NCBI GenBank assembly: GCA_041649135.1
Contig: JBAZNQ010000002.1
Location: 41,238-105,237 of the forward strand
Reading direction: 5' to 3'
Source of the DNA: Patescibacteria group bacterium
Lineage (GTDB): Bacteria; Patescibacteriota; Kazan-3B-28
Length of the DNA stretch: 64,000 nt
Below the pieces are notes generated by a model. It searched no databases. It had not been told where the DNA came from and saw nothing but the letters and a program-made list of their open reading frames with translations. Both the position numbers and the translations under genes were made by a program. This document shows positions 1,163 through 55,375 of the stretch, piece by piece. The first letter of the stretch is position 1. Each line of letters opens with the position of its first letter.

Positions 1163-3172
1163 ATGAATTCAATTGATCTAGTGCTGACTACAGCTTTGAT
1201 CGCTGGCGGGGTAGCGGTGGTATATGCTCTTATCTTGGTTGGCTGGGTGATGAAGCAACCAACTGGTAATGCCAAAATGGTCGAGATCGCCCACGCAATT
1301 CAAACAGGAGCGGCGGCGTATCTCAAACGCCAGTACTTAACTATCGCTCTGGTCGCGATCATTCTAGCTATTATTTTATATTTTGCACTAGGTCTTATGA
1401 CCGCTCTTGGATTTTTGGTTGGAGCAATTCTTTCTGGTGTCGCCGGCTTTGTTGGGATGAATGTTTCGGTTCGGGCTAATGTTAGAACCGCCGCCGCCGC
1501 CAGTCGTGGGATCGCCCCTGCTCTCGACCTTGCCTTCAGAGGTGGTGCAGTTACCGGCCTATTTGTAGTCGGTTTGGGATTGCTGGGAGTAACTGGATTT
1601 TATTTGTTAACTCGGGATGTTAATGCGCTGATCGGATTAGGTTTTGGTGGTAGTTTAATTTCTATTTTTGCTCGGCTTGGTGGCGGCATCTTTACCAAAG
1701 GGGCTGATGTTGGTGCTGACCTAGTCGGGAAAATCGAAGCTGGGATCCCCGAGGATGATCCCCGCAATCCTGCCGTCATCGCCGACAATGTCGGTGACAA
1801 TGTCGGTGATTGTGCCGGAATGGCCGCTGACTTATTTGAGACCTACGCCGTTACGGCTGTCGCTACAATGGTTCTGGCCGCGTTATTATTTGCCGGCAAT
1901 CCCCTGTTGATCACCTTCCCGCTAGCGATTGGGGCGGTTTCGATAGTTGCTTCGATCTTGGGTACTCTGTTTGTCCGACTGGGTAAAGGTAAAAATATTA
2001 TGGGCGCGATGTATAAAGGAATTATCGCCAGCGCTGTATTGGCTGCCGGCGGATTTTACTTTATTACCCGCTATCTTCTGTCGAACGTTACTGGAATTAA
2101 TTATCTGAACATCTTTTACGCTCTATTGATCGGGTTGGTTGTTACCGGCTTGATCATCTGGATTACCGAATACTATACTTCCACTCGGTTCGCGCCAGTT
2201 CGGTCAATTGCCAAAGCTTCTGAAACCGGCCACGGTACTAATATCATTACTGGTCTGGCGGTCGGAATGAAATCTACTACTCTACCGATCCTAGTTATTG
2301 TTGCTGCGATTTGGGGTTCCTATTATTTTGCTGGTCTCTTTGGCGTTGCAATGGCTGCCATGAGCATGCTCTCGCTGGTTGGGATCGTTGTGGCAGTTGA
2401 CGCGTATGGCCCGATTACTGATAACGCTGGTGGTATTGCGGAGATGTCTAATTTACCAGAATCAGTTCGCCAAGTTACCGATCCACTCGATGCGGTCGGT
2501 AACACTACCAAAGCCGTTACTAAGGGGTATGCTATCGGCTCCGCCGCATTAGCTACGATCGTGTTGTTTGCCGCATATACCGAAGAATTAAAAAACATTA
2601 CTGGTGCCGTGCCCCAGTTTTTACTTGGCGATCCGAAAGTTTTGATCGGTTTGTTTATTGGCGGTCTGCTTCCCTACCTGTTTGCCGCGTTGTCGATGGA
2701 GACTGTCAGTAAAGCGGCCATGGCCGTTGTCAAAGAAGTGCGTCATCAATTTGCGACGATCCAGGGGATCATGGAAGGTACGGCTAAACCCGACTATGCT
2801 CGGGCGGTTGATATTGTTACTCGTGCCGCAATTCGGGAAATGATCATACCGGCTCTTTTGCCAGTCGTCGTCCCGATCTTGGTTGGTTGGTTGCTAGGCC
2901 CCATTGCTCTGGGCGGCGTTTTGGTTGGAAGCATTATTACTGGCTTGTTCGTGGCCGTTTCTATGACTACTGGTGGCGCGGCATGGGATAACGCCAAAAA
3001 ATATATTGAAGAAGGACATTTAGGAGGCAAGGGCTCTGCTGCCCACGCCGCCGCTGTTACGGGTGATACCGTGGGCGACCCCTACAAAGATACTGCTGGT
3101 CCAGCCATCAACCCGATGATCAAGATCATTAATATCGTGGCTATTCTAGTGGTGAGTTTCTTATTACGGTAA
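1163..3172 (+). CDS. hppA: Membrane-bound proton/sodium-translocating pyrophosphatase (V-type H+-PPase)
   Basis: 669 aa polytopic protein with signature motifs [27 protein letters not shown] and [18 protein letters not shown]. Confidence 0.95.
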
Positions 3173-18116: not shown

Positions 18117-18184
18117 AAAGTCAAAAGTTAATAGTGGAGAGTGAAACACGAACTGCCCGTTACCTAAATTCTTAATTTTTAATT

Positions 18185-20648: not shown

Positions 20649-20736
20649 TAATTTTTAATTTTGGTTTTGAATATTAAATTAGTATAACAAAAAAACCGCT
20701 TCCAGTCAAGGGTTTAGCTCATTTTCTAGCGGATGA

Positions 20737-22512: not shown

Positions 22513-22608
22513 TTGGAATAATTAAGAATTAAGAATGAATAATGAAGAATGACGGAGGTCGCCTGCGGCGACTACTTTAATTTTTCACTTTTAACTATTC
22601 ACTATTAA

Positions 22609-23214
22609 CTAGATCTTGTAGTATTTTACTTTTATTTTTCCCGCTCCCAGCGGAGCGATAGCCGCAAATGCCGGTTCGTTCAAATCCAAATCAATTCCAG
22701 TAAACGCGCTTGGACCGTAATCATTGATCACTACATCTACGCTTTTGCCAGAATTAACCGCTACTACTCGCAACTTCGTACCCTTTGGATATTTTCGACT
22801 TGCCGCTGTTAGTTTATCACCAAATCGGTACCAAGTGGCCAATCCGGAATGAAGCTCACTTAATTTCGGTTTTGGAGGAGTTGCTACGGTCGCCAACGCT
22901 GTCTGCTGGATTTTGTAATTCTTGGCTACTGTTGCATCCAGTTTTGTCAAAGTGGCATCTTGGATCCACACAGTCATCATCGTGGCAAGTTGAGTGTCGG
23001 GAAGAGGATCAACCTGAAGCGTTTCGTAACTACCAAAATATTCTACTAACAATTCCGCCACATCCGTGGCAGCTGTAGTTGCGGTCCAACTTAAACCGTT
23101 ATAGTCCATGGTGATCAATCGGCTAGCTTGCACCGGTTGTTCGAATTGTCCTACTACTAATGTCGCGATTGCTAGTGTCCCAACTTGGATTAATACCTTC
23201 GGCCACTTACTCAT
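22609..23214 (-). CDS. RlpA-like double-psi beta-barrel (DPBB) lipoprotein
   Basis: N-terminal signal peptide and C-terminal GLATWYRFGDKLTAASRKYPKGTKLRVVAVNSGKSVDVVINDYGP matching the RlpA DPBB consensus. Confidence 0.75.
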   Translation of the reverse strand: MSKWPKVLIQVGTLAIATLVVGQFEQPVQASRLITMDYNGLSWTATTAATDVAELLVEYFGSYETLQVDPLPDTQLATMMTVWIQDATLTKLDATVAKNYKIQQTALATVATPPKPKLSELHSGLATWYRFGDKLTAASRKYPKGTKLRVVAVNSGKSVDVVINDYGPSAFTGIDLDLNEPAFAAIAPLGAGKIKVKYYKI

Positions 23215-26728: not shown

Positions 26729-26929
26729 GTGCAACTGACGACCACACGTCATCCTGGTTCCCCCCTCGTCATTCCCGCGCAGGCGGGAATCCAGAAAAGA
26801 ATATTTTCTTTTTCTGTCTGGATCCTCGGGTCAAGGAACGTCTGACGTTCCAAGCCCGAGGATGACAAAATAAAATTGTGCCATAGGCAACGCCGCAATT
26901 ATTAACTATTCACTTTTAACTTTTCACTC

Positions 26930-28020: not shown

Positions 28021-28199
28021 ATGAAGGGCAACAATCACTTTCTGTTCGGCGCCATGGATCTCTTTGATCAGATTCTTCTCCTCTTGGTCGGTGTCACAGT
28101 TTTGTTGATCAATCTTGGTCTTATCCCGTACTACTGGCTGGCTTACTGGCCAATTCTCTTGATCGCAGTCGCACTCAAGGAAATGCTACAGAATAATTA
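28021..28199 (+). CDS. Small hydrophobic protein (59 aa; below the ORF-track length cutoff)
   Basis: ATG at 28021; MKGNNHFLFGAMDLFDQILLLLVGVTVLLINLGLIPYYWLAYWPILLIAVALKEMLQNN has two TM helices; stop at 28197-28199. Confidence 0.3.
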
Positions 28200-28202
28200 A
28201 AA

Positions 28203-32320: not shown

Positions 32321-32432
32321 ACTAGTAAAAGCCGCTAGTAACGGCAAATGATGAATGCCAAATAACCAATGATCGAATTTCCGGCTTTGCCGGAATACCA
32401 GAACTTTTCACTTTTAACTTTTCACTTTCCTC

Positions 32433-34947: not shown

Positions 34948-35169
34948 ATGGGGGTTCTCATGCCAGTGCGCAGAAGAAGAAAGGCTGCTGCTAAACCAGC
35001 CGCCAAGAAAACTGTTCGTCGTCGTAAGGCGGCGAAGAAGACAACAGTCAAAAAGACTGTCCGTCGTCGCAAAGCGAAGAAGACAACAGCCAAGAAAAAG
35101 GTTGTCCGTCGTCGCAAAGCGAAGAAGACCACAACCAAGAAACGGGTTGTGCATCGTCGCAAAAAATAG
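34948..35169 (+). CDS. Small Lys/Arg-rich tandem-repeat protein (histone H1/Hc1-like nucleoid protein candidate)
   Basis: 73 aa with ~17-aa repeats KKT(T/V)xKK(T/K)VVRRRKAKK encoded by ~51-nt DNA repeats. The real start may be the second ATG at 34960 (MPVRRRRK), which is preceded by a GGGGG SD-like tract. Confidence 0.55.
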   Translation: MGVLMPVRRRRKAAAKPAAKKTVRRRKAAKKTTVKKTVRRRKAKKTTAKKKVVRRRKAKKTTTKKRVVHRRKK

Positions 35170-35186
35170 TGCAGTTAATGCATTAT

Positions 35187-35216
35187 AAAAGACACTTCCT
35201 GGGGGGAGTGTCTTTT
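35187..35216. terminator. Bidirectional terminator hairpin between the convergent basic-protein gene and the iscS-like gene
   Basis: AAAAGACACT-tcctgggggg-AGTGTCTTTT, with a T-run on both strands. Confidence 0.55.
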
Positions 35217-35277
35217 ATATGGCTATATAAAAGTAACGCAGGGAGTGTCTTTTATATGGCTATATAAAAGTAACGCG
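35204..35277. repeat. Two tandem 37-bp direct repeats, each containing the palindrome CTTTTATAT-GGCT-ATATAAAAG
   Basis: GGGAGTGTCTTTTATATGGCTATATAAAAGTAACGC(A/G) occurs twice back to back; the first unit overlaps the terminator's 3' arm. Confidence 0.8.
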
Positions 35278-35287
35278 AGGGTGTTCT

Positions 35288-36430
35288 TTAATTTGCGGCT
35301 AGTTGTTTTAGCTCTTTGGCCAGTTTCACCAAATCTGGTTTTTTCGTGAGATAGCCAAGTGTAATTCGTACACTTGAGTTAGCTCTGGTTGCGTTCAATC
35401 CCATTGCCAACAACACATACGAAGGTTCCACACTGCCAGCCGCACAAGCCGATGCCGCCGATACCGCTATCCCCCGCCGATCCAACCCGATCACCAACTC
35501 ATCACTAGTTTTCCCCTTCACACTAAAATTAAGATTATTCACTAGTCGGCTGGTCAAAGAACCATTAAATTCAATTTGCGGGAGTTTTCTTAATTCTTTA
35601 ATTAGATATTTTTGTAGTTCACTCAAGCGCTTAGTTTCTGCCGGTTTTTGTCGTTGCACCATTTCCAAAGCAGTCGCCAATCCAACGATTCCGGGCACGT
35701 TTAAACTGCCAGACCGCAAACCTCGTTCCTGCCCACCGCCATATATAATTGGTTGAAGTGGTACGCCATCCCGAACATATAACAGTCCAACTCCCTTCGG
35801 CCCGCCGAGTTTGTGGCCGGACAATGTTAGCATGTCGGTATGTAAAATTTGAGTGTCTAATGATAGCAGATTCCCAGCCTGCACCGCATCAGTATGAAAA
35901 TAGATCGGCTGTTTCCGTTTCTGGTTTTCTCGCTTTAACATCAACCCGATTTCTCGAATCGGCTGGATTGTTCCCACTTCGTTGTTGGCATACATGATTG
36001 ACACCAAAAAAGTTTTTGGAGTTATCGCCTTGGTGATCTGCTCTACTGATACTATCCCCTCCTGATTTGGTTTGATGTAAGTTACTTTCAAGCCTGTTTG
36101 TCCCAACGCTCGGCAAGTTTCTAGCGCCGCCTTGTGTTCGATCGTAGTCGTAATGATATGACCATCGGGATAATTTTTTGCCAACCCGTAGATCGCTAAA
36201 TTATCCGCCTCGGTGCCGGAACTAGTAAAAATTATTTCCAATGGTTTGCAGTTTAAAATCTCCGCAACTTTTCGACGAGCCTCATCGGTTGCTTTTTGGG
36301 CTTGCTGGCCAAACCGATGGATGCTCGCAGCATTCCCAAATCTCTCCGAAAAGTACGGTTTCATCACCTTCACGACTTCCGGCCGAACCGGAGCCGTTGC
36401 GGCATAGTCTAAATAAATTCGTTTTTCCAT
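35288..36430 (-). CDS. iscS: Cysteine desulfurase (IscS/NifS family, PLP-dependent)
   Basis: MEKRIYLDYAATAPV N-terminus, PLP-lysine motif SGHKLGGPKGVGLLYV, class V aminotransferase fold. Confidence 0.92.
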   Translation of the reverse strand: MEKRIYLDYAATAPVRPEVVKVMKPYFSERFGNAASIHRFGQQAQKATDEARRKVAEILNCKPLEIIFTSSGTEADNLAIYGLAKNYPDGHIITTTIEHKAALETCRALGQTGLKVTYIKPNQEGIVSVEQITKAITPKTFLVSIMYANNEVGTIQPIREIGLMLKRENQKRKQPIYFHTDAVQAGNLLSLDTQILHTDMLTLSGHKLGGPKGVGLLYVRDGVPLQPIIYGGGQERGLRSGSLNVPGIVGLATALEMVQRQKPAETKRLSELQKYLIKELRKLPQIEFNGSLTSRLVNNLNFSVKGKTSDELVIGLDRRGIAVSAASACAAGSVEPSYVLLAMGLNATRANSSVRITLGYLTKKPDLVKLAKELKQLAAN

Positions 36431-36925
36431 GTACCCTACCTATAACCATATCTTAATCCCAAGCCCATCACGGGGCGCCACCATCGTAACCGAAGAGGCT
36501 GTCTATAGAAAGGGAGGCCCCTAGAAACTAGGGGCCGAGGTGGTAGCAGAGTTGTCGGACAATAGTCCGAGCTCTACCATTACAATCTCCGTCGATGAGA
36601 CGGAGGTGGTGCTCTGGGAGAAGACCCCCAGCTGGACTAGGACTGCGATAAAGAAACACAGCAGTCCCGTCACAATTCCTACGGGAATCCAGCTACCCAC
36701 AGTACACCTCCAAGGTGCAACTCTGTGAACCCACAGGTGAGGAACTGATCGAGATTGACCAATTAGGTCATTATAGCAAAAAACTCGCTCCCAGTCAATG
36801 TTTTTCCCATTTTCCCTCCTATGAGAGTTATCACCCAGATCCACCCAACTCACCTATTTTCAGGTATATTGATAAATGTTCTCCCCAACTTTTAACTATT
36901 CACTTTTAACTCTTCACTTTCTTCT

Positions 36926-38638
36926 ATGACCCACCAAGAACTTCGAGTCAAATTTGTCCGGTTTTTTGAGTCCAGAGGGCACAAGCTTGTTCCCTCTGCT
37001 TCCCTTCTACCCAAGGACGACCCCTCGGTGCTTTTAACTGTTGCGGGAATGCAACAATTTAAACCGTACTTTATTGGTCAAAAGGACCCGATGGCCGACT
37101 TTGGCTCTCGCAATGTAATTTCCACCCAAAAATGTTTTCGGACCGCTGATATTGATGAAGTGGGTGATGACACTCATCTCACCTTTTTTGAAATGCTTGG
37201 CCACTTTTCTTTTGGTGGTTATTTCAAAGCAGAAGCTCTTGCCTACGCTTGGGAATTTTTGACTAGTCCAGATTGGCTCGGAATTGAACCAACTCGAATC
37301 TCGGCTACCTATTACAATGGTGACCGATCCGGTACTACAGAGGACAATGATTCAAAAAAGATTTTGTCCGAACTGGATGGGCTAAAAGACATTACTGGCC
37401 ATGGGGCGGTAGACAATTTCTGGGGGCCTACTGGTGCTGAAGGTCCCTGTGGCCCCAACGTAGAATTTTATGTTGACGGTGTAGAAGTCTGGAATGCTGT
37501 CTTTAATGAGTATTACTCTCACACCGACCAATCCCTCACTCCTCTTAAGACCCAAGGTGTTGATATGGGCAGCGGATTTGAACGAATGTTAGTTGCGGTT
37601 AATCGTCTCAACAATCTTTTTGAAACCGATGTGCTTACCCCACTCATGGAAAAATTAACTCCCCTGCCGGAACATTCCCAGCGAATCGTTGCTGACCATA
37701 TTCGCGGAACAGTTTTTCTACTCTGTGACCACGTCCTACCGTCAAACAAAGAAGAGGGCTATATCCTTCGTCGAATTCTCCGTCGTCTGTTGTTACATCT
37801 TAGAAACAGCGGCGTGACACTAGAAGATTTAATCGACATCGTGATTGGTATCTTTAAAGTCGCCTATCCGGATTTGGTTATCGAACAGACTTTTATCAAA
37901 CAAATCGCTCGAGAAGAAGCCGACAAATTTAGTCGCACCATTGATGTCGGCGAACGGGAGTTAACCAAGATTCTGGATACCGGTGCCACGACCATCTCGG
38001 GGACAGAAGCATTTAAATTATTTGCCTCTTATGGCTTACCGATTGATTTCATTAAAGAAAAGATTAGCGTAGACGAGACTGAATTCAACGCCGAATTTGC
38101 TAAGCATCAGGAAATCTCTCGGGCTGGTGTAGAAAATAAATTTGGTGGGCACGGACTGGCCGCTGGTGCCAGCGTGAGCGACGAAGACAGACAAAAGATC
38201 ACCCGTCTACATACTGCCACCCATTTACTGCACGAAGCCCTGCGGGCAACTCTGGGCGATACTGTTCATCAAGCTGGTTCGGACATCAACCCCGAGCGCG
38301 CTCGGTTTGATTTCGCCTTTCCCCGCAAATTAACTCCTGAAGAAATCTTCCAAATTGAAGACTGGGTTAACCAAAAAATTTCCGCTGGTTTTACTGTTAC
38401 TAAACAGACTCTCCCCTATCAAACCGCTATCGACCAAGGTGCGTTAGCATTTTTCAAAGAAAAATATCCAGCCGAAGTAGATGTCTATACTATTGTGGCT
38501 AGTGATGGCACTGCCATCAGCCAAGAACTCTGTGGCGGCCCACATATCACCACTAGCCAAGAGTTGGGACACTTCAAAATCATCAAAGAAGAAAGCAGTA
38601 GCGCTGGAGTTCGTCGGATTAAAGCAGTTTTGGAGTAA
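36926..38638 (+). CDS. alaS: Alanine--tRNA ligase, compact form (catalytic + editing domains only, 570 aa)
   Basis: AlaRS class II N-terminus (FVRFFESRGHKLVPSASLLP..DPSVLLTVAGMQQFKP), editing-domain HxxxH (HTATHLLHEAL) and CGGPH motifs. No C-Ala domain. Confidence 0.85.
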   Translation: MTHQELRVKFVRFFESRGHKLVPSASLLPKDDPSVLLTVAGMQQFKPYFIGQKDPMADFGSRNVISTQKCFRTADIDEVGDDTHLTFFEMLGHFSFGGYFKAEALAYAWEFLTSPDWLGIEPTRISATYYNGDRSGTTEDNDSKKILSELDGLKDITGHGAVDNFWGPTGAEGPCGPNVEFYVDGVEVWNAVFNEYYSHTDQSLTPLKTQGVDMGSGFERMLVAVNRLNNLFETDVLTPLMEKLTPLPEHSQRIVADHIRGTVFLLCDHVLPSNKEEGYILRRILRRLLLHLRNSGVTLEDLIDIVIGIFKVAYPDLVIEQTFIKQIAREEADKFSRTIDVGERELTKILDTGATTISGTEAFKLFASYGLPIDFIKEKISVDETEFNAEFAKHQEISRAGVENKFGGHGLAAGASVSDEDRQKITRLHTATHLLHEALRATLGDTVHQAGSDINPERARFDFAFPRKLTPEEIFQIEDWVNQKISAGFTVTKQTLPYQTAIDQGALAFFKEKYPAEVDVYTIVASDGTAISQELCGGPHITTSQELGHFKIIKEESSSAGVRRIKAVLE

Positions 38639-41750: not shown

Positions 41751-41915
41751 ATGAAAAAAGTAATTTGGGTTGGTGCTGCGTATCTTATAGTTCCCATTTA
41801 TATTCTTGGAATTCTTTTCATTCCGAAAGTTTTTATGTCTACTCCAGTTGTCATAGTCGGAGCAAGTTTTATGATTTTCTATACTTTTGTAGTCCCATTT
41901 ATATCTAAAGACTAG
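41751..41915 (+). CDS. Small hydrophobic peptide (54 aa), AT-rich, immediately upstream of the IS transposase
   Basis: MKKVIWVGAAYLIVPIYILGILFIPKVFMSTPVVIVGASFMIFYTFVVPFISKD; stop at 41913-41915. Confidence 0.3.
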   Translation: MKKVIWVGAAYLIVPIYILGILFIPKVFMSTPVVIVGASFMIFYTFVVPFISKD

Positions 41916-54095: not shown

Positions 54096-54588
54096 AGGAG
54101 CCGTAAGAATCGCGATCCTGAGTGAACCGAGTGCCTTTGGTCTCTCCCTTGCTGACGTCAATCCGATGCTCCTATACCAGCTCCGCAAAGACGATCCAGA
54201 ATACAGCGAGCACGGAACGACGGAGCTGTGGGAGCTCTGCTTTGATGCGGTGAATGAGTTGCTGCACGCTAAGGTCATCGAAGTATTTGCTGGCGCGAAC
54301 CGGCGCAAGGATGAGCTGGTGCAGCAAGTAGCTGTGGCTGAAACTCAGCCGAAAGAGCAACCTGCACCGGCAAAGCCTAACGGCAAGGCCAAGAGTAGCG
54401 GCAAAGAAGCTGAAGCCAGCAATGGTAATAGCAACCGTGGCGGTAAGCTGACGGTAAAGCAGCTGCGCTATCTCGGTTTCCTGCATCGGAAAGTCGGCGA
54501 AGAGCCGGACTACATTGTCATCTCAGCCCTGACGCAGAGTCAGGCCACAATGCGTATCAAGGAGTTGGAGCAACGCGTTAATGGGTGA
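54079..54588 (+). CDS. Hypothetical protein with Lys/Ala/Pro-rich linker
   Basis: 169 aa; central low-complexity segment QPKEQPAPAKPNGKAKSSGKEAEASNGNSN. Confidence 0.4.
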   Translation: MQQSAEGAVRIAILSEPSAFGLSLADVNPMLLYQLRKDDPEYSEHGTTELWELCFDAVNELLHAKVIEVFAGANRRKDELVQQVAVAETQPKEQPAPAKPNGKAKSSGKEAEASNGNSNRGGKLTVKQLRYLGFLHRKVGEEPDYIVISALTQSQATMRIKELEQRVNG

Positions 54589-54998
54589 TGCGCCCTCTGC
54601 CATTCCCGCAGACGGGTTAGATTTCCCAAGGGATTTCTGCAAGCTAACCGGCACGTCGTTCCCGCGACGGGCTGGCTTGGCTTGGGAACGACTAATAAAT
54701 AACAATAGCGTGATTGGGTTACTTGTGGTATGCTTTACTCGTGGATAACTTGTTGATAATCCACACAATTGCGTCCCGACGAGATTCTGCTGCGCCTGAC
54801 GACGCTCGTATGTGTTATACTTTGTACCCAGCTCAGCGGATGAATGAGCTGGGGGAGAATGGCGGAAAAGCTGAATACATGGGGCGTAGCTCATGCGAGT
54901 CTGGTGGAATCTCGCGGATGCTACAAAGGCACCTTGGCAAAGGCAAAAAGCACCCCCGCTCGTTAAAACAAGCGGGGGCCATTGCACGGTAGGTTACC

Positions 54999-55100
54999 CT
55001 ACCGTTTCCGTTTATTCAGTCCTTGCCATACCAGAATGATCTGGCAGGCTAGACCGATAACGGCAACGATGAGTCTTATCCACTCAAAGTGGCCGTTCAT
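54999..55100 (-). CDS. Candidate 31-aa hydrophobic peptide (type I toxin-like); unannotated short ORF
   Basis: SD GGAGGT 7 nt upstream of the ATG; MNGHFEWIRLIVAVIGLACQIILVWQGLNKRKR has a TM helix and a basic tail. A hairpin ACGGTAGG-ttac-CCTACCGT lies immediately downstream. Confidence 0.3.
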   Translation of the reverse strand: MNGHFEWIRLIVAVIGLACQIILVWQGLNKRKR

Positions 55101-55375
55101 GACGGTACCTCCTTTTGTGGCTCTACCACGAGGCCCACAGGGGGTACCGTCCCCATTTATTTGTTTTAAAAAACCCGCTCGTGCGGGTTGTTCTGTTTAT
55201 CTACTCGGGGGAAACTGCAAGTGTTTGAGCTTCACTAGCTTAAGCCACCGTTCAGCTTCACGTATACTCATACAGCCTCCACCGTTGAAAGTATACCACA
55301 CTTTTGGTCGAGGGCAAGATCGGGGGAACTGGTTCATAGCTAAAACCCGCGCTGAATAGCATCTCGCTTCCCGGG

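Follow-up and report, generated by a model that had tools for sequence, protein, structure and literature searches.

The 495-bp spacer between an iscS-like gene and alaS probably harbors, to judge from its sequence, an unannotated and strain-variable gene on the minus strand, which would encode a small membrane peptide from a heavily folded mRNA with masked SD and start codon. In the model proposed here, a conserved promoter (36798..36770) would initiate a minus-strand transcript of ∼250 nt at about position 36764. This transcript would open with a 5' stem-loop, followed by GGAGGUG and a GUG codon buried in a local hairpin; the ORF would yield a 59-residue peptide with a single N-terminal transmembrane (TM) helix, and a GC-rich hairpin (36536..36516) would close the unit 86 nt ahead of the iscS-like gene, terminating or attenuating transcription. 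By occluding the SD and start codon, the fold of the mRNA may restrict translation, and/or it may stabilize the short message. The distal 5'UTR, the ORF and the hairpin would together constitute a cassette exchanged among closely related strains, with one promoter and 5' stem-loop common to all lineages and an ORFan small membrane peptide that differs from lineage to lineage.

The spacer (36431..36925) was correctly delimited in the original prediction, as were its strong helices, the three named ones being found at 36542-36578, 36587-36605 and 36516-36536, and the region as a whole has fold z scores of -4 to -5. The window, meaning the whole 64-kb stretch of DNA analyzed, is matched by an identical ENA contig (L001), and a JGI contig (L002) represents a near-identical strain with an AlaRS identical to that of the window. 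Identity of the AlaRS reaches 76–81% with the closest MAGs and 68% with Kazan MAGs, and by these AlaRS relatives the bacterium belongs to the Patescibacteria/CPR, near candidate division Kazan. The enzyme is ∼570 aa long in the window (36926..38638) and in all retrieved CPR relatives (loci L003–L162), with no domain matched past tRNA_SAD, and its short form looks like a clade-wide truncation. The features of the region are collected in Table 1.

Table 1. Features of the spacer between the iscS-like gene and alaS, with its neighbors and the small ORFs of the equivalent slot in relatives.
Feature	Position	Strand	Details
Aminotran_5 (IscS/NifS-like) gene, class-V aminotransferase	35288..36430	-	380 aa
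Spacer between iscS-like gene and alaS	36431..36925		495 bp, divergent genes on either side
Strain-variable cassette	36444..36739		296 bp; structured core: distal 5'UTR, ORF, hairpin and spacer
-10-like TAAGAT	36455..36450	-	putative promoter; purine-rich GGTAGGG precedes the iscS-like ATG
Spacer from hairpin to iscS-like start	36515..36431	-	86 nt before ATG
GC-rich hairpin GGCCCCUAG-UUU-CUAGGGGCC, then UCCCUUUCUAU	36536..36516	-	9 bp, -18.1 kcal/mol, z -4.4
Candidate ORF MGSWIPVGIVTGLLCFFIAVLVQLGVFSQSTTSVSSTEIVMVELGLLSDNSATTSAPSF	36700..36521	-	59 codons + TAG, GTG start
RBS GGAGGUG and GUG start	36711..36705 and 36700..36698	-	spacing GGAGG, 6 nt, GTG
Predicted SD/start-occluding hairpin	36727..36698	-	-13.4 kcal/mol, z -2.85
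5' stem-loop AAUUGGUC-AAUCUC-GAUCAGUU	36764..36743	-	8-bp stem, -6 kcal/mol, z -3.3
Sigma-70-type promoter TTGACT-17-(TGc)TATAAT	36798..36770	-	11/12 consensus positions, extended -10
alaS-proximal part	36856..36925	+	conserved block TTTTCAGGTATATTGATAA, then unstructured pyrimidine-rich 5'UTR
alaS, short	36926..38638	+	AlaRS of 570 aa, tRNA-synt_2c + tRNA_SAD
Small ORF in L004			48 aa; ATG at the position of the window GTG relative to GTTGCACC..GGAGGTGT
Small ORF in L083			58 aa; MTYSYSGVAFVGAFVLLLLIFG...
Small ORF in L002			73 aa; MDWFKSVAVAIMVTLFLVVGYVF...

The divergent promoter is directed leftwards, away from alaS, with a predicted transcription start at ∼36764 (-). As judged by alignment, its block AAAAAnnTTGACTGGGAGCGGnTTTTTGnTATAAT is kept in five genomes (the window, L002, L003, L004 and L083), whose AlaRS are 79–100% identical. 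Hairpins equivalent to the 5' stem-loop occur in L004 and L083; in the alignment of the three distinct sequences 22 of 22 cells pair, with one pair altered on both sides and two on one side, wobble and compensatory changes included, three sequences being too few for significance. Stabilizing stem-loops are known from the 5' ends of bacterial mRNAs, the hairpin of the ompA 5'UTR being an example. The stem-loop of the window resembles this type in that it begins at, or 1–2 nt from, the predicted start and has a structure conserved in relatives, and differs from it in that both the transcription start and a stabilizing role are presumptive in the window. The same hairpin accounts for the heptamer AATTAGG, which had been placed ∼100 nt before alaS: it lies at 36761-36767, ∼160 nt from alaS, and is not a T-box remnant but complementary to the bases with which the 5' hairpin of the minus-strand transcript begins.

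Promoters of the same type, consisting of TTGACTGG(G/A)AGC(G/T)(G/A), a T-rich spacer and an extended -10 box, were also found at 20709 (-) of the window, at 1386 (+) in L015, L016 and L098 and at 1696 (+) in L091. These recurrences are located at other genes and, beyond the window, in other Kazan-group genomes. Their conserved spacer, GGGAGCGG, could represent a binding site or a promoter element specific to the lineage.

The region had been described as devoid of any plausible ORF, which does not hold for the minus strand, where an ORF of 59 codons (36700..36521) lies behind GGAGGTG. The encoded peptide has an N-terminal hydrophobic helix, predicted to be transmembrane, followed by a polar acidic tail, and contains neither Lys nor Arg. 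Its best 19-residue Kyte-Doolittle mean (2.56) is N-terminal and falls within the top 0.26% of 765 random window ORFs of similar length (P=0.0026). The start context, GTTGCACC..GGAGGTGT plus 3 nt plus start codon, is common to the window (GTG) and L004 (ATG), with the same position and the same spacing. An SD-like motif is found upstream of just 9 of the 43 long ORFs of the window; since the lineage rarely uses SD sequences, the perfect GGAGG is noteworthy, though its use is not guaranteed.

Coding statistics are less favorable to this ORF. Its codon score is -0.019, compared with 0.239±0.135 for real genes, which corresponds to the level of spurious ORFs and is as low in only 3% of real 59-codon segments, and the antisense frames score as well as its own. 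The opposite strand also has an ORF of comparable size (62 aa). The 59-codon ORF is not called among the genes of the identical ENA contig, and a word-indexed search and an exhaustive HMMER search, covering 5.8 billion clusters and 1.84 billion representatives, recovered no homologs of the peptide. Two HMMER matches, in proteins of 331 and 919 aa, were multi-stretch and were discarded as low-complexity. Comparison with Pfam, NCBIfam and PADLOC gave no match, toxin and defence families included.

Replacement of the cassette is observed directly in the near-identical strain. In L002 the 296 bp of the window are swapped for 345 unrelated bp, between flanks with an identity of 97.4% toward the iscS-like gene and 99.5% toward alaS, the 186 nt upstream of alaS being 100% identical. 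At the borders of the cassette the sequence is ...CAGTTCCT| and |GGTAGGG. An identical cassette is present in the only other contigs found with the window allele (L001/L163 and L164), and searches through the window, 162 related loci and the phage, plasmid and viral-contig collections turned up no further copy.

L004, L083 and L002 share one layout, with the conserved promoter, a homologous 5'UTR, an SD at 6–7 nt and a small ORF with a hydrophobic start (N-terminal hydropathy 2.6–3.0), followed by a GC hairpin with a T-rich tail and then by the iscS-like gene. The codon scores of these three ORFs are gene-like (L004 0.23, L083 0.21 and L002 0.32, against 0.24±0.14 for real genes), and the proposed frame is clearly the best in each. 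Those of L002 and L004 are called as genes in the JGI data, and those of L004 and L083 are each flanked by a predicted promoter and terminator. Each of the four slot peptides is a singleton in protein collections, and no mutual similarity beyond composition was detectable among them, so that occupation of the same slot is no proof of being the same gene. An alignment of the window peptide with that of L083 (48 aa, 27% identity) suggested kinship, which was rejected as compositional because segment-preserving shuffles were not beaten (P=0.59).

The slot also accommodates other cargo, with a different gene in L003, L084 and L085 and only a 125-nt spacer in L008. The occurrence of quite different cargo behind the same promoter points to a general hot spot for variable genes. 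The ORF of L003 (1..490, -) appears HTH-like by eye and would be driven by the same alaS-adjacent divergent promoter, and the 1740-3000 interval of L084 and L085 contains proteins of 158 and 192 aa together with a convergent ORF of 140–176 aa. An integron cassette with attC was also considered and rejected, since no integrase is present, the neighbors being alaS and the iscS-like gene, and the borders lack a GTTRRRY core.

Predicted structure in the region exceeds expectation. On the plus strand z is -4.10 for the full 495 nt, and on the minus strand it is -4.96 for positions 36431-36770, none of 100 dinucleotide shuffles being as stable in either case; the minus-strand region is predicted to form seven consecutive hairpins. 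In a scan of the 64 kb with 1274 overlapping 300-nt segments on both strands, in which MFE was regressed on base composition, only two segments have a composition-corrected MFE more negative than that of 36501-36800(-) (-4.2 residual sd, n=1274). The minus strand is ∼11 kcal/mol more stable than the plus strand, suggesting that it is the relevant RNA, and the 141 nt adjoining alaS (36800-36940, +) have no structure beyond chance (z -0.06). The many helices of the spacer would be explained by the folding of the mRNA of a small gene and not by a leader of alaS.

In three of the four loci the structure goes beyond that of synonymous recodings. When synonymous codons were permuted within each ORF, with protein and codon content kept, the native transcripts of the window, L004 and L002 were more stable than the permutations (z -4.5, -4.2 and -3.0, respectively; 0 of 60 as stable), unlike that of L083, whose stability did not go beyond its permutations. 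Shuffle z scores of the cassettes in the relatives are -6.23 for L004 and -5.78 for L002, and only -0.98 for L083. Extra mRNA structure beyond the needs of the protein in three of the four loci hints, as far as fold predictions allow, at a regulated or restrained translation. In partition-function folds of the full transcripts, pairing probabilities of the SD and the start codon are 0.8–1.0 for the window, L004 and L083, and the SD of L002 is open. The partner in L004 is an anti-SD, CACCUCGG, at the 3' end just ahead of the terminator, and the window has an anti-SD-like CCACCUCGG at the equivalent place, just upstream of its terminal hairpin.

No Rfam family, the T-box included, was matched inside the region at the gathering score, or when positions 36300-37050 were scanned on both strands with permissive filters (E≤10). 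Covariance models of RNase P, tmRNA, 6S, SRP, riboswitches and other curated families gave no score near threshold, and the sole match at E≤10, to gltS (19 bits; gathering score 47.5), is inside the alaS coding sequence.

On the iscS-like side, the GC-rich hairpin looks like a terminator or attenuator and, according to its predicted fold, would terminate or attenuate transcription ahead of the iscS-like gene. Its tail, UCCCUUUC, has only 4 U in 8, and the hairpin was missed by the terminator scan because this U-tract is too weak; the equivalent hairpins of L004 and L083 were called as terminators by the same scan. No consensus promoter was found by the promoter scan between the hairpin and the iscS-like gene of the window. 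A TAAGAT/TAATAT box 6–19 nt before the iscS-like start occurs also in L004, L008, L083 and L002.

These features bear on a reading that is compatible with a small gene and has an appreciable, though minor, chance of being correct, namely that the iscS-like gene has the cassette as its long translated leader or attenuator. Transcripts from the conserved promoter would then continue past the weak hairpin into the iscS-like gene, to an extent modulated by translation of the small ORF. The lack of a proper U-tract and of a consensus promoter in the window would fit such a role, as would the position of the stop codon, which falls within the hairpin in both the window (3' arm) and L004 (loop). Also, the hairpin is separated from the iscS-like start by just 26–45 nt in L083, L002 and L004, leaving little space for a promoter, and a purine-rich SD-like box precedes the start. 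However, the terminators of L004 and L083 are canonical, and the stop codon is ∼28–30 nt upstream of the hairpin in L083 and L002, so that the coupling of stop codon and hairpin is not conserved. The TAAGAT/TAATAT box is near the iscS-like gene even in L008, which has no cassette, other genes intervene in L084 and L085, and cassette contents that are unrelated among strains would be odd for a dedicated regulator.

An independent sRNA was among the possibilities raised originally. Part of this idea survives, since an independent structured transcript of ∼250 nt is probable, but it would come from the opposite strand and would most likely be the mRNA of a small membrane peptide. That the transcript from this promoter is instead a non-coding structured sRNA, with the ORF being fortuitous or the decayed remnant of a small gene like those of the relatives, is rather doubtful. 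Such an RNA would be in agreement with codon usage that is indistinguishable from spurious ORFs, in a frame that does not surpass the antisense frames, with the lack of protein homologs and gene calls, with the comparable 62-aa ORF on the other strand, and with the extreme helix density. It is harder to reconcile with a strong SD at optimal spacing and a start at the position used in L004, with an N-terminal TM segment that is improbable by chance, and with the presence in the same slot of three relatives of TM small ORFs with good coding statistics, two of them equally structured. In addition, no Rfam family was matched, and no related sequence was found that could display covariation.

Hydrophobic peptides silenced by SD occlusion are typical of type I toxin mRNAs such as hok, aapA1, tisB and fst, and the small membrane-peptide gene proposed here shares with them a small hydrophobic product (<60 aa, with a single TM helix), a compact folded mRNA with structure above the requirement of the protein, a predicted anti-SD occlusion and a strain-variable, ORFan content reminiscent of the exchange of toxin-antitoxin loci. 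Predicted pairing masks the SD and start codon of the window, L004 and L083, in L004 through a 3'-end anti-SD that the window also carries before its hairpin, and a second, more classical-looking TM ORF of 33 aa with a buried SD is found at 55100..54999. Nevertheless, a toxin-like module of this type is improbable at the spacer. A consensus scan, which non-canonical promoters could escape, revealed no plus-strand promoter or terminator-like site over the cassette in the window, L004, L083 or L002, and the window locus thus differs from the known systems in having no antisense RNA signals. The peptide also has a long acidic polar tail in place of a charged or basic motif and matches no toxin or defence family; moreover, the SD of L002 is predicted to be open and the mRNA fold of L083 is ordinary.

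The 33-codon ORF at 55100..54999 (-), MNGHFEWIRLIVAVIGLACQIILVWQGLNKRKR, encodes a single TM helix and a C-terminus with basic residues. Its SD, AAGGAGG, is contained in a long hairpin formed by GACGGTACC...GGTACCGTC, and downstream of the ORF there is a clean terminator; by these sequence features it looks like a classical type I toxin (surroundings 54523..55240). Segment 54901-55200(-) is the second most structured of the scan, and the 460 nt downstream of the ORF (54523-54980) have no convincing ORF and no Rfam match.

The other proposal of the original prediction, that alaS has a cis-regulatory leader on the plus strand (T-box, riboswitch or AlaRS autoregulatory site), can practically be dismissed: other phyla have aaRS genes with structured leaders, alaS lies downstream on the plus strand, the AATTAGG heptamer is present, and the spacer resembles T-box leaders (RF00230) in adjoining an aaRS gene and in having helices and a hairpin followed by pyrimidines, but the structured part is on the wrong strand, the plus strand folding worse than the minus, and lies >185 nt upstream of alaS, past a conserved divergent promoter, the proximal 141 nt lack structure, neither a T-box sequence nor a match to RF00230 or any other Rfam family at E≤10 was found in the region, the core is not conserved with alaS, being swapped in L002 beside an identical alaS and absent upstream of alaS in L003, L084, L085 and L008, and the -10 box of the L004 alaS is just 9 nt from the ATG.

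The part of the spacer next to alaS has features of its own. The TTTTCAGGTATATTGATAA block is kept in five genomes, with a probable -10 box, TATATT, at 36865-36870, and in L004 the scan located TTGAGC-18-TATATT just ahead of the alaS ATG. As far as sequence can tell, this suggests leaderless mRNAs or very short leaders in the lineage. The 5'UTR of alaS also contains an 18-mer, AACTATTCACTTTTAACT, at 36894-36911. With up to 3 mismatches it has 6 occurrences in the window, compared with 0.08 expected (sites 36894-36911, 32402-32419, 26904-26921, 22579-22610 and 18119-18136), and it is positioned 8–15 nt upstream of the ATG of alaS, of a gene for an MraY-like glycosyltransferase and of an ORF of 166 aa that begins with MSQIILGLDPGTATIGYG and by eye resembles RuvC. 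The Kazan loci L006 and L007 contain similar copies. The motif may serve several genes as a common element of the 5'UTR or of translation, or be the site of a regulator. The regions upstream of most housekeeping genes are A/T-rich and devoid of SD sequences.

The kind of element proposed for the spacer is most likely a known one, a gene for a small ORFan membrane peptide. Similar to small single-pass membrane proteins (<60–70 aa), the 59-aa peptide has an N-terminal TM helix, a promoter of its own, an SD and a terminator-like hairpin, and its gene is lineage-specific, sits in an ‘intergenic’ gap and is missed by gene callers. Unlike them, the window ORF has atypical codon usage and no basic residues, its mRNA is far more structured, and the coding part is exchanged for unrelated ORFans in near-identical strains with the promoter and 5' stem-loop kept. 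What is less ordinary is most likely this combination of a fixed socket with swapped and independently structured cassettes. A broader interpretation, in which the promoter and 5' stem-loop beside alaS would form a fixed ‘expression socket’ of Kazan-like CPR bacteria for swapped ORFan peptides with independently selected, folded and RBS-masked mRNAs, is speculative and on balance unlikely. If it were true, the socket peptides would be conditionally translated (toxin-like or stress-released) small membrane peptides of ultra-small episymbiotic bacteria.

With regard to annotation, the 495-bp ‘intergenic’ gap of this CPR genome most likely conceals a small gene, and since the signal taken for an ncRNA or aaRS leader would be explained by the fold of an mRNA, the spacer should not be entered as a candidate riboswitch. 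The presence of different peptides behind one promoter and 5' stem-loop in near-identical strains would mark the site as a hot spot of recombination at which ORFan peptides of the surface or membrane are exchanged, in organisms that are thought to depend on cell-cell contact.

Other small and structured loci were observed in the window. The most structured segment of the scan, 35001-35300 (+), holds the region of a 73-aa Lys/Arg-rich repeat protein (34948..35169, +), in which …KKTVRRRKAKKTT… is repeated, and the gene is followed at 35204-35289 by a 37-bp tandem duplication with a terminator-like hairpin. Two candidate small membrane-protein ORFs with two hydrophobic segments each, of 59 aa at 28021-28200 (+) and 54 aa at 41751-41915 (+), lie in gaps between long ORFs, and the locus at 28.1 kb is among the more structured segments of the scan.
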